DNA of 35,013 nucleotides. Origin: a virus (Duplodnaviria > Heunggongvirae > Uroviricota > Caudoviricetes). The notes beneath the pieces are model-generated. The model saw only the letters and a list, made by a program, of their open reading frames with translations, was not told the DNA's origin and made no database searches. The stretch lies in IMG/VR virus record IMGVR_UViG_2534681831_000020, positions 1-35,013 of that record. One strand, given 5' to 3'. Shown here one piece after another: positions 19,319 to 23,772 of the stretch. Within the stretch, counting starts at the first letter, position 1. Each line of letters begins with the position of its first letter. Made by a program: the position numbers and the translations under genes.

Positions 19319-19750
19319 TCACAGGTGATTCTCCAGACGAAGACCCAGAACACCGGCAATCTCTTCCAGCACCTTGCGCTCTTCCGGCTCAATTTCGCCG
19401 TCTGCCTCCGCAATGGCCACCGCCACATCCAGCACATCTTCCGCTTCACGCGTATCGTGTTTCACATCCTCGATCTCACGTAACGCGGCACGACGACCAA
19501 TTTTAAAATTGGTATCCAGCTGACCGATAATAGTTGCGCTAATCGCATTAATTTCCGAGGTAAACGCAGACAACGCAGGCTGATTACGTAAGACCTGTTC
19601 GATCTTCGCTTTCTCGGATGCCTCGCATTCACCATCTGCATAGGCCACCAGGTATGCAGCGTTAATCACCGCCTGTGCCAGATCGCGTTTCTCAAACTTT
19701 TTAATTTCCGCTGCCGCTCTGCGGGTTTTCTTTTTGAAGATTCCAAACAT
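19319..19750 (-). CDS. TerB-like (tellurite-resistance TerB family) protein; native upstream region displaced by the IS66 insertion
   Basis: 143 aa, MFGIFKKKTRRAAAEIKKFEKRDLAQAVINAAYLVAYADGECEASEKAKI...IAEADGEIEPEERKVLEEIA: two ADGE-containing helical repeats typical of TerB-fold proteins. Confidence 0.45.
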   Translation of the reverse strand: MFGIFKKKTRRAAAEIKKFEKRDLAQAVINAAYLVAYADGECEASEKAKIEQVLRNQPALSAFTSEINAISATIIGQLDTNFKIGRRAALREIEDVKHDTREAEDVLDVAVAIAEADGEIEPEERKVLEEIAGVLGLRLENHL

Positions 19751-19837
19751 CGGTAAGCGTAAACTGACCGCCGTATGTAGCCATCAGACGAGAATTGGTA
19801 ACTTAGACGCCCATCTGATATAGACGGACATCTAAGT

Positions 19838-20263
19838 ATGGAATTACAGGACTGGCGAAAAGAACCTCGTAAAAACTATTCGAATGAATTCAAACTTCGT
19901 ATGGTGGAACTGGCATCACAACCTGGAGCTTGTGTTGCACAGATTGCACGTGAAAATGGCGTCAATGATAATGTTATTTTCAAATGGCTCAGGCTCTGGC
20001 AGAACGAAGGGCGTGTTTCGCGGCGTCTTCCGGTAACGACCTCTTCTGACACTGGCGTTGAATTATTACCTGTAGAAATAACGCCGGATGAGCAGAAAGA
20101 ACCTGTGGCGGCCATTGCGCCGTCTTTATCCACTTCCACTCAGACCAGAGTCAGTGCCAGTTCCTGCAAGGTGGAATTCCGTCACGGTAACATGACGCTG
20201 GAAAATCCATCGCCAGAGCTGCTCACGGTGTTGATCCGTGAACTGACCGGGAGGGGAAGATGA
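19838..20263 (+). CDS. IS66-family accessory protein TnpA (orfA)
   Basis: 141 aa with helix-turn-helix region ...MVELASQPGACVAQIARENGVNDNVIFKWLR..., typical of the first ORF of IS66 elements. Confidence 0.8.
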   Translation: MELQDWRKEPRKNYSNEFKLRMVELASQPGACVAQIARENGVNDNVIFKWLRLWQNEGRVSRRLPVTTSSDTGVELLPVEITPDEQKEPVAAIAPSLSTSTQTRVSASSCKVEFRHGNMTLENPSPELLTVLIRELTGRGR

Positions 20264-20610
20264 TCTCACTCCCATCAGGTACCCGTATCTGGCTCGTTGC
20301 CGGCGTTACCGATATGCGTAAATCCTTCAACGGACTGGGAGAACAGGTACAACATGTGCTGAATGATAATCCCTTCTCCGGTCACCTGTTTATCTTCCGT
20401 GGCCGACGGGGTGACACCGTCAAAATTCTTTGGGCTGATGCTGATGGTCTGTGCCTGTTCACCAAACGCCTGGAGGAAGGCCAGTTTATCTGGCCTGCGG
20501 TACGTGACGGCAAGGTATCCATTACCCGCTCGCAACTGGCAATGCTCCTCGATAAGCTGGACTGGCGTCAGCCAAAAACATCCAGCCGTAACTCACTGAC
20601 AATGTTGTAA
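20260..20610 (+). CDS. IS66-family TnpB (orfB)
   Basis: 116 aa, MISLPSGTRIWLVAGVTDMRKSFNGLGEQVQHVL...; overlaps orfA by 4 nt as in IS66. Confidence 0.8.
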   Translation: MISLPSGTRIWLVAGVTDMRKSFNGLGEQVQHVLNDNPFSGHLFIFRGRRGDTVKILWADADGLCLFTKRLEEGQFIWPAVRDGKVSITRSQLAMLLDKLDWRQPKTSSRNSLTML

Positions 20611-20913
20611 AAAACTCCTGACCGCATTATAAAAACGGTCATGAGTCAGAAATACCTCATTCGCATCGCAGAGCTGGAAAGGTTGCTCTCTGAGCAGGCT
20701 GAAGCCCTCCGTCAGAAAGACCAGCAACTGAGTCTGGTTGAAGAGACGGAAGCCTTCCTGCGCTCTGCACTGACACGTGCCGAAGAAAAGATCGAAGAAG
20801 ATGAACGGGAAATAGAACATCTGCGGGCTCAGATAGAAAAACTGCGCCGGATGCTGTTCTGAACCGCCCCGGAAATCCTGGAGACTAAACTCCCTGAGAA
20901 AGAGGTAAACAGG

Positions 20914-21240
20914 ATGACTAAAAATACTCGTTTTTCCCCCGAAGTCCGTCAGCGGGCGATTCGTATGGTTCTGGAAAGTCAGGATGAATATGACTCACAG
21001 TGGGCGGCAATTTGTTCCATTGCCCCAAAGATTGGCTGTACGCCGGAGACTCTGCGTGTCTGGGTTCGCCAGCATGAGCGGGATACCGGGGGCGGTGATG
21101 GTGGGCTCACCAGCGCTGAACGTCAGCGTCTGAAAGAGCTGGAACGTGAAAATCGTGAACTGCGCCGCAGTAACGATATCCTTCGCCAGGCTTCCGCTTA
21201 TTTTGCGAAGGCGGAGTTCGACCGCCTCTGGAAAAAATGA
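20914..21240 (+). CDS. IS3-family transposase OrfA (IS629-like)
   Basis: 108 aa, [60 protein letters not shown]... Confidence 0.85.
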
Positions 21241-22127
21241 TGCCACTGCTGGATAAGCTGCGTGAGCAGTACGGGGTCGGACCGGTATGCAGCGAACTGC
21301 ATATTGCCCCGTCAACGTATTACCATTGTCAGCAACAGCGACATCATCCGGATAAACGCAGTGCCCGTGCGCAGCACGACGACTGGCTGAAGAGAGAGAT
21401 ACAGCGCGTATACGATGAAAATCATCAGGTGTACGGTGTGCGTAAAGTCTGGCGTCAGTTGTTACGGGAAGGAATCAGGGTGGCCAGATGTACAGTGGCA
21501 CGTCTCATGGCGGTTATGGGACTTGCCGGTGTTCTCCGGGGTAAAAAGGTCCGTACGACCATCAGCCGGAAAGCCGTTGCCGCAGGCGACCGCGTAAACC
21601 GTCAGTTCGTGGCAGAACGACCTGACCAGCTGTGGGTGGCTGATTTTACTTACGTCAGCACATGGCAGGGCTTCGTCTATGTGGCGTTTATCATTGATGT
21701 GTTTGCCGGATACATCGTGGGGTGGCGGGTCTCATCGTCTATGGAAACGACATTCGTGCTGGATGCGCTGGAGCAGGCGTTGTGGGCCCGTCGTCCGTCT
21801 GGCACCATCCATCACAGCGATAAAGGCTCTCAGTATGTGTCACTGGCCTATACGGAGCGACTAAAAGAAGCCGGATTACTGGCATCAACAGGGAGTACAG
21901 GCGACTCGTATGACAACGCGATGGCTGAGAGCATCAATGGTCTTTACAAAGCGGAGGTAATACACCGTAAGAGCTGGAAAAACCGTGCAGAAGTGGAACT
22001 GGCCACACTAACGTGGGTGGACTGGTATAACAATCGACGATTGCTGGGAAGGCTGGGCCATACTCCTCCGGCAGAAGCAGAAAAAGCTTATTATGCTTCC
22101 ATCGGAAACGATGATCTGGCAGCCTGA
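21237..22127 (+). CDS. IS3-family transposase OrfB (integrase-like catalytic domain; IS629-like)
   Basis: 296 aa with the DDE-type region ...[31 protein letters not shown]...[11 protein letters not shown]...[16 protein letters not shown]... Confidence 0.85.
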
Positions 22128-23772
22128 GTTCACAGATAAAACACTCTCCAGGAAACCCGGGGCGGTTCAGTTCGGTACCCGTTCTGAAAAACTGCGTCGT
22201 GAAGTTGAACTGGCTGAGGCTCTGCTGAAACAACGTGAACAGGACAGCGATCGTTACAGTGGGCGGGAAGACGATCCTCAGGTTCCCCGCCAGTTGCGAC
22301 AGTCGCGCCATCGTCGTCCGTTACCGGCACACCTTCCCCGTGAAATACACCGCCTGGAGCCAGAAGAAAGCTGTTGCCCGGAGTGTGGCGGTGAGCTGGA
22401 TTATCTGGGAGAAGTCAGCGCTGAACAGCTGGAACTGGTGAGCAGTGCCCTGAAAGTGATCCGCACAGAACGGGTAAAAAAGCCTGTACAAAATGTGACT
22501 GTATTGTTGAAGCACCGGCGCCGTCCCGCCCGATAGAGCGTGGTATCGCGGGCCCCGGATTACTTGCCCGCGTGTTAACGGGAAAATACTGCGAACATCT
22601 GCCACTGTATCGTCAGAGTGAAATCTTTGCCCGCCAGGGTGTCGAACTGAGCCGGGCCTTACTCTCCAACTGGGTTGACGCGTGCTGCCAGTTAATGACA
22701 CCGGTGAATGATGCCCTGTACCGTTATGTGATGAATACCCGCAAGCTTCACACTGACGACACACCGGTAAAGGTACTGGCACCGGGCCTGAAAAAGACGA
22801 AAACAGGGCGCATCTGGACGTATGTCCGGGATGATCGCAATGCGGGTTCGTCATCTCCTCCGGCGGTCTGGTTCGCGTACTCATCGAACCGGCAGGGGAA
22901 ACACCCGGAGCAACACCTCCGCCCCTTCCGGGGTATCCTGCAGGCGGATGCGTTCACAGGTTATGACAGGCTGTTCAGTGCAGAACGTGAAGGTAGTGCG
23001 CTGACAGAAGTTGCGTGCTGGGCTCATGCCCGGAGAAAAATCCACGATGTATACATCAGCAGCAAAAGTGCGACGGCAGAAGAAGCCCTGAAGCGAATCA
23101 GTGAACTGTACGCCATCGAGGATGAAATACGGGGATTACCAGAATCAGAGCGTCTTGCAGCCAGGCAGCAGCGAAGCAAAGCGTTACTGACGTCGCTGCA
23201 TGAATGGATGGTGGAGAAGAATGGCACGCTGTCGAAAAAATCCAGACTGGGCGAAGCGTTCAGCTATGTACTGAATCAGTGGGACGCCCTCTGTTATTAC
23301 AGTGATGACGGTCTGGCGGAGGTGGACAATAACACAGCGGAAAGAGCGCTTCGTGCAGTCTGTCTCGGAAAGAAAAATTACGTGTTCTTCGGTAGCGATC
23401 ACGGCGGCGAGCGTGGAGCACTGCTGTACGGGCTGAGCGGCACCTGCCGTCTGAACGGTATCGATCCGGAAGCGTATCTGCGCCATATTCTGAGCGTACT
23501 GCCGGAATGGCCCTCCAACCGTGTTGACGAACTCCTGCCATGGAACGTAGTACTCACCAATAAATAAGCGTCAATACGGTGCTCCGTTGACGCTTACAAA
23601 CATCGTGACGTTCCTTTGGGTGGGTGAGCCAACGCCCGGGAGCGATCTGCCCACAGAGAAAGTCACACTGACCACTCCGTAAGCTCACCCCCGAAAGGCT
23701 CTGTGGTTGATATGCGCCGGGCGTGGCGCAGATACAAAAAAGGCCCGCCGAAGCGAGCCTGGAAAATAAGTG

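Follow-up and report, generated by a model that had tools for sequence, protein, structure and literature searches.

In Shiga toxin (Stx) and related lambdoid phages, insertion sequences (ISs) of the IS3 family (IS1203/IS629) and of the IS66 family (ISEc8) have been described between stx and nanS-p or within nanS-p (PMC10462455). IS629 generates target duplications of 3-4 bp, shows no sequence-specific target and is found inserted mostly in prophages (PMC3271280). Here we analyzed a related arrangement in the virus record IMGVR_UViG_2534681831_000020, a stretch of Caudoviricetes DNA of 35,013 nucleotides, hereafter the window, in which the IS66-family element ISEc47 is inserted on the start codon of a TerB-like gene, named tciA in phage records, and is itself interrupted by an IS629/IS1203 element. 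The locus arose by two nested transposition steps that took place within the late region of a degraded lambdoid prophage from the O111 lineage of Escherichia coli, and this copy of the tciA cassette was likely silenced as a result; to the account as a whole we assign a probability of about 75%. The same configuration of these two well-known ISs can be found, with annotation, in public genomes.

The target gene is located at 19319-19750 on the minus strand and encodes an intact protein of 143 aa, identical to WP_000466957.1, with the ATG at 19750-19748. The protein matched the Pfam family TerB (PF05099) with E=2.9e-16 and 60.2 bits against a gathering cutoff of 24.4, and over its whole length (1-143 of 143) the PHROG family phrog_632 'tellurite resistance' (E=1.7e-69). 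The start codon, which reads CAT at 19748-19750 on the plus strand, lies within the left copy of an 8-bp target-site duplication, AAACATCG. This octamer occurs only twice on the plus strand of the window, at 19745-19752, where it matches the empty site, and at 23598-23605, and both copies flank ISEc47.

ISEc47 extends from 19753 to 23597 on the plus strand and measures 3845 bp together with the element nested in it; subtraction of IS629 and of one GTTC copy leaves 2531 bp, intact copies being 2532 bp long. Its name was taken from the RefSeq/PGAP labels on identical copies ('IS66-like element ISEc47 family transposase'). Assignment to the IS66 family is based on the consecutive tnpA, tnpB and tnpC genes, on the 8-bp duplication and on inverted repeats beginning with GTAAGCG. 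The first two genes are complete: tnpA (19838-20263, plus strand) encodes 141 aa with an HTH_Tnp_1 domain, and tnpB (20260-20610, plus strand) encodes an IS66 Orf2-like protein of 116 aa (TnpB_IS66, E=1e-36). The tnpC gene is divided by IS629 into a 5' fragment comprising codons 1-73 (20641-20859, plus strand) and a 3' part carrying the zinc-finger, DDE_Tnp_IS66 and C-terminal domains (22174-23567, plus strand), the TnpC domains being zf-IS66, LZ_Tnp_IS66, DDE_Tnp_IS66 (E=6e-93) and the IS66 C-terminal element. The ends of ISEc47 read GTAAGCGT… and …ACGCTTAC, both beginning with GTAAGCGT as inverted repeats. The left repeat, GTAAGCGTAAACTGACCGCCGTAT (19753-19776), is the same end found in independent copies and agrees with the right repeat (23574-23597) at 20 of 24 positions, so that the pair is imperfect. 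Once IS629 was removed, the whole 2531 bp matched the copy of strain E2863 with the exception of a single-base deletion in an A-run (reported identity 100.0%), and the identity with ISEc23 copies was about 98%. Identical termini also delimit two independent ISEc23 copies, which are located at unrelated sites of the chromosome and flanked by 8-bp duplications of their own, CCGCCATC and TTCTGTCT.

The inner element, 1310 bp long and apparently intact, occupies positions 20860-22169 on the plus strand, between two copies of the 4-bp duplication GTTC (20856-20859 and 22170-22173). It shows the size of about 1.3 kb, the TG...CA ends, the orfA/orfB pair with a programmed -1 frameshift, the rve DDE domain and the 3-4 bp duplication that characterize IS629/IS1203 within the IS3 family. 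The orfA gene (20914-21240, plus strand) contains an HTH_Tnp_1 domain, orfB (21237-22127, plus strand) contains HTH_21, rve and rve_3, and the ALIL frameshift pseudoknot was detected at 21195-21311 (Rfam RF01497, 121.5 bits); the inverted ends read TGAACCGCCCCGG. At the DNA level this element equals the copy of strain 8B, which is annotated as 'IS3-like element IS1203 family transposase' with a programmed frameshift. The nested IS629 appears fully functional. Its excision together with one GTTC returned the sequence GCTGTTCGGTACC, found uninterrupted in five other IS66-family copies, and restored a tnpC that matches, bar one base, the intact gene for 537 aa present in strains 2013C-3250 and 11128.

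The state of the locus before the insertions was then reconstructed by removing positions 19753-23597 and one copy of AAACATCG. The resulting empty site was found in many E. coli genomes with 100% identity over 360 of 360 bp, and at least 80% of it was covered in 790 genomes. In strain E2865, the empty locus carries the TerB-like gene with the same start and the same accession, WP_000466957.1, with tRNA-Arg about 170 bp upstream; accession and start are thus identical at interrupted and uninterrupted loci. The original prediction, made from the letters of the window, had placed an IS66-family element with an 8-bp duplication on the TerB-like ATG, a 1310-bp IS629-like element with GTTC repeats splitting its transposase gene and the original upstream sequence of the target at about 23606. 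All these statements proved correct, the first two to the exact coordinates and the third with tgacgttcctttgggtgg at 23606-23623; the pre-insertion reconstruction it had proposed returned known loci, and neither a different TerB start at an uninterrupted locus nor discordant termini in other copies came to light.

The distribution of the two junctions gives the order of the events. Of 5,426 complete genomes, 44 contain the junction between the TerB-like gene and ISEc47, among them that of the 2009 O111:H- reference strain 11128. Strains 2013C-3250 and 11128 have an intact ISEc47 at this position, encoding the 537-aa TnpC, and 11128 lacks IS629. The form with IS629 inside ISEc47 was recovered in two strains only, 8B (by a match to the junction) and 8234 (by a match to the whole region). 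Because the outer junction is shared by 44 genomes and the nested form was recovered only from 8B and 8234, the arrival of ISEc47 in an O111 ancestor preceded that of IS629, which is limited to a small sub-clade. In the first step, ISEc47 made its usual 8-bp staggered cut over CG-ATG-TTT, at the very start of tciA; in the second, an intact IS629/IS1203 entered tnpC of ISEc47 at codon 73-74 with a 4-bp duplication, in one small sub-lineage.

This ISEc47 copy is non-autonomous, since IS629 cuts tnpC after codon 73 and no full-length transposase is left. The proposal that the IS66 copy had probably been immobilised therefore holds for autonomous transposition only: as neither end of the IS66 element is damaged and intact related copies are common across E. 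coli genomes, the composite of ISEc47 and IS629 could still be moved in trans by a transposase supplied from elsewhere.

The consequences of the insertion for tciA were evaluated starting from translation. Pairing energies with the 3' end of 16S rRNA were computed at spacings of 4-12 nt, the calculation without a spacing limit being misleading (-5.7 vs -5.6 kcal/mol). The ancestral leader, …CCCAAAGGAACGTCACG-ATG, contains a Shine-Dalgarno sequence, AAGGA, 7 nt from the start codon, with an energy of -5.6 kcal/mol. The present leader, …GTTTACGCTTACCG-ATG, reaches -2.4 kcal/mol, which equals the median of random sequences and is attained or exceeded by 48% of random 25-mers. The ancestral leader ends in …CCCAAAGGAACGTCACGATG and the one formed by the IS junction in …GTTTACGCTTACCGATG. 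No in-frame start was found upstream of the tciA ATG before a stop codon, nor any open reading frame (ORF) ending close enough for translational coupling, the nearest upstream ORF on the minus strand ending 125 nt away.

The ribosome-binding site and the 5' spacer of tciA are now 3.85 kb away, together with the other copy of the duplication. There, the original AAGGA (23616-23612) and the duplicated ATG (23603-23601) open a mini-ORF of 10 codons (23571-23616, minus strand; MFVSVNGAPY followed by a stop) that runs into the right end of ISEc47. Without a Shine-Dalgarno sequence tciA would be translated poorly, and the tciB-like gene, which overlaps the stop of tciA with its own start codon, would be expected to suffer likewise. 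The main loss would thus concern translation rather than transcription, and this copy of the tciA-tciB cassette is most likely functionally silenced.

Transcription was considered next, as the original prediction had expression of tciA depend on read-through or on an outward promoter of the IS end. The gene order in the leftward direction comprises a Q-like antiterminator, an AraC-like gene, tRNAs, tciA, tciB, sialate esterase, holin, lysozyme, and the head and tail genes. The Q-like gene (25322-25888, leftward) matched phrog_753 'anti-termination protein Q-like' with E=1e-80 and stands ahead of cargo, lysis and morphogenesis genes that share its orientation, the organization expected of a lambdoid late operon. 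The original 5' spacer of the TerB-like gene, displaced to 23606-23772 (minus strand), contains a strong intrinsic terminator (23760-23741, minus strand) immediately after tRNA-Arg, and 135 bp separated this terminator from the ancestral ATG. At a threshold of at least 9 of 12 matching positions, no minus-strand sigma-70-like promoter was found in these 135 bp or near the left end of ISEc47; a relaxed scan returned a single 8/12 match, 214 nt upstream of tciA, and the total of sigma-70-like matches equalled the shuffled expectation. No convincing outward promoter thus emerged at the ISEc47 end. Literature searches on IS66 outward promoters returned nothing relevant, and those for 'ISEc47' unrelated material only.

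Polymerase modified by Q resists terminators, as established for lambda Q. Because a terminator follows tRNA-Arg, the spacer contains no recognisable promoter and the genes stand in late-operon order, tciA would always have been transcribed mainly by Q-modified polymerase, and read-through was probably its original mode of transcription before the insertion too. The same enzyme can probably still cross ISEc47, antisense to the genes of the IS, and arrive at tciA when the late phage genes are expressed. The minus strand of the 3.85-kb insert contains one weak terminator-like site only (22160-22148). Further upstream, minus-strand terminator-like sites were located at 25188-25167 and 24914-24897, and the scan showed no clear pR' between the Q gene and these sites. 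Of the two routes originally proposed, read-through is therefore plausible, being probably the ancestral mode rather than a new one, and the outward promoter is not supported; the loss of the Shine-Dalgarno sequence had been overlooked.

The strongest competing explanation is that tciA is still expressed, through read-through or an outward promoter in the left end of ISEc47, so that the insertion rewires the gene instead of silencing it. The ATG and the full ORF of tciA are indeed intact and the same as in uninterrupted copies, a polymerase would meet a single weak terminator-like site in the insert, and the insertion has been kept in 44 genomes. Retention within one clonal lineage is, however, expected of a neutral insertion as well, no sigma-70-like site faces outwards near the ISEc47 end, the lost Shine-Dalgarno sequence has nothing in its place and no upstream ORF is near enough to couple its translation to that of tciA. 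On balance we regard continued expression as unlikely.

Some considerations nevertheless weigh against silencing of the cassette. E. coli translates some mRNAs that have no Shine-Dalgarno sequence, and residual expression of tciA is thus possible. In every genome with checked annotation, the TerB ORF shows no damage at all, which fits a recent neutral event and a continued function equally well. Promoter scans based on a consensus miss weak promoters and those not dependent on sigma-70. Finally, the placement of tciA in a late operon, suggested by analogy, rests on gene order and on the likeness to lambda and Stx phages.

A second alternative concerns the inner insertion and proposes that GCTGTTC|GGTACC in IS66-family tnpC genes is a preferred IS629 target, leading to recurrent directed nesting. 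In strain 12009 (O103:H2), an IS629-like element with about 4% divergence lies in opposite orientation at the identical left-junction nucleotide of an IS66 copy with about 5% divergence; this nested copy adjoins efa1/lifA, and its IS629-like element occupies locus coordinates 2561-3870. In other genomes, IS629-like insertions were recorded at no fewer than 8 further positions, all in the next 320 bp or so downstream. Identically designed control anchors gave a different picture, with 551 genomes for an anchor in tnpA (near tnpA/tnpB, at several distinct sites) and 2 for the tnpC core, against 22 for the anchor at this site. Nesting is therefore spread over the 5' half of the IS66 element and is not focused on GCTGTTC|GGTACC, and a single shared site is unremarkable where some 1.5 kb received tens of independent insertions. 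Moreover, the copy of strain 12009 lacks a clean duplication, and the published absence of a sequence-specific target for IS629 (PMC3271280) argues in the same direction. An IS629 hotspot in IS66 tnpC was accordingly not supported, the control anchors showing widespread nesting of IS3-family in IS66-family elements, and directed nesting is in our opinion very improbable.

Slightly lower still do we place the chance that either the ISEc47 insertion is a lineage-defining regulatory change of O111, with tciA-tciB silenced or expressed in lysogens from an undetected outward IS promoter, or the local preference of IS629 for GCTGTTC|GGTACC is real. A regulatory change of this kind would be expected to produce a measurable phenotype, such as altered tolerance to tellurite or colicins or phage exclusion. 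The tciA gene is present in 2-5 matching places per O111 genome, 3 of them in strain 8B, and a phenotype is unlikely because these copies would buffer the loss of one.

That the nested structure is wholly or partly an assembly artefact of repeated IS copies has practically no chance of being true, as the error-prone assembly suggested by about 18 mostly homopolymer single-base indels relative to the near-identical strain 8B makes only single-base indels suspect, while both junctions recur base for base in independent complete genomes (the outer in 44, the inner in 8B, with 8234), both insertions have clean target duplications and excision gives back known sequences.

Those indels, distributed over the 35 kb between positions 606 and 33923 and nearly all located in homopolymers (for example at 19181, 19233, 19260, 22475, 24771 and 24789), bear on two apparent lesions of the window. 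In the 3' part of tnpC, a run of seven A is shortened to six at about 22475, which causes a frameshift. The DUF3927/TciB-like gene (19152-19322, minus strand; 55 aa; PHROG 1470 'TciB-like'), whose GTG start overlaps the TerB stop in the sequence GTGA, is broken by three 1-bp insertions (19181, 19233 and 19260), and its protein diverges past residue 20. Strains 8B and 2013C-3250 share a reading that differs from that of the window at each of the four indels located in the interval 19000-24200. Given this agreement and the number of homopolymer indels, the tnpC frameshift and the three tciB insertions are probably assembly errors, and the frameshift, considered as a second inactivating mutation of tnpC, was downgraded for the same reason. 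This suggests that pseudogene calls in the window are unreliable without reads.

As for the prophage, it belongs to an E. coli chromosome of serotype O111 (O111:H8/NM-type), adjoins tRNA-Ser and mtfA, and its integrase is a pseudogene. In strain 8B, an IS remnant stands beside the prophage integrase (40467-41581 of that sequence, outside the window), which is truncated and frameshifted, and a frameshift also affects a gene situated between those for holin and lysozyme. Even leaving aside the insertion in the late operon, the prophage is probably defective. In the early region, a sok antitoxin RNA was detected at 28316-28490 (minus strand; Rfam, 113.5 bits) next to an annotated Hok/Gef family gene, forming a hok/sok type I toxin-antitoxin module.

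Upstream of the TerB-like gene, a cluster of three phage tRNAs (Ile-like CAT, Arg TCG and Arg TCT) occupies 23773-24024 on the minus strand. The tRNA at 23949-24024 (minus strand) was called tRNA-Met (CAT) by ARAGORN, whereas RefSeq reports tRNA-Ile for the identical gene; it corresponds to an ileZ-like tRNA, with a lysidine-modified CAT anticodon, of an ileZ-argN-argO-type cluster typical of Stx-like phages. The gene of the AraC-family regulator (24053-24766, minus strand) showed its best NCBIfam similarity to YdeO and GadX, far below the cutoffs, and a match to phrog_1450; it presumably resembles the prophage-encoded regulators of acid resistance and virulence of enterohaemorrhagic E. coli (EHEC). 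In O145-type PPompW prophages (phage record LC567818 and others), the spacer after the same tRNA-Arg, homologous to about 23606-23700, is broken by ISEc20, an element of the IS110 family. Insertion sequences thus appear to accumulate downstream of tRNA-Arg in more than one lineage, several being concerned.

On the other side of tciA, a prophage small RNA (sRNA) of the STnc100 family, related to PasD, was identified at 18975-19147 (minus strand) between the TciB-like and sialate esterase genes, with an Rfam score of 104.7 bits (gathering score 47). It lies about 600 bp downstream of ISEc47 in the same direction of transcription. According to a 2026 preprint (10.64898/2026.05.13.724894), PasD/STnc100 and PasA/PasC are associated with this same esterase-holin neighbourhood and TerB is a conserved neighbour of PasA/PasC, with PasA/PasC placed between esterase and holin and PasD/STnc100 directly upstream of the esterase. 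The displaced TerB spacer was evaluated as a possible PasA/PasC sRNA and this identity was rejected, since Rfam finds STnc100 alone, at 18975-19147, and ISEc47 interrupts no sRNA. A literature search on the function of tciA and tciB returned unrelated matches only (Trypanosoma TcIa/TcIb).

The significance of the locus hardly extends past the bookkeeping of strains: the outer junction is a marker of the O111 lineage and the junction with IS629 one of a small sub-clade, and both are possible typing targets akin to IS-printing. The locus offers a textbook case in which a target-site duplication leaves the start codon yet removes the ribosome-binding site, and it recommends caution to annotators, as an 'intact' ORF beside an IS end may be unexpressed. 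It has no bearing on open questions about IS66, IS629, TerB proteins or lambdoid phage biology.

Comparison with known systems defines what is shared and what is particular at this site. ISEc47 and ISEc23 of the O111:H- strain 11128 and of other RefSeq genomes have the same tnpA/tnpB/tnpC layout, GTAAGCG termini and 8-bp duplication. Strain 11128 carries ISEc47 at the identical site, and the copy in the window differs from it by the tnpC split by IS629 and by the 1-bp deletion in the A-run, the latter probably an assembly error. The inner element shares all its features with IS629/IS1203 of EHEC (IS3 family, IS51 group) and differs solely in being nested inside another IS. In Stx phages, the position held here by tciA-tciB in the late operon is that of stx, and the IS insertions reported between Q and the lysis genes (PMC10462455) fall in the same late-operon interval; here the cargo is tciA/tciB (TerB/DUF3927) and the insertion is exactly on the start codon. 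Insertion of an IS between a ribosome-binding site and its start codon is a general silencing mechanism in which the coding sequence is untouched and the initiation region displaced, and the same is seen at tciA. Unlike that general case, the 8-bp duplication of ISEc47 spans the ATG, so that the gene and the orphaned ribosome-binding site each keep a start codon, the latter opening the mini-ORF.

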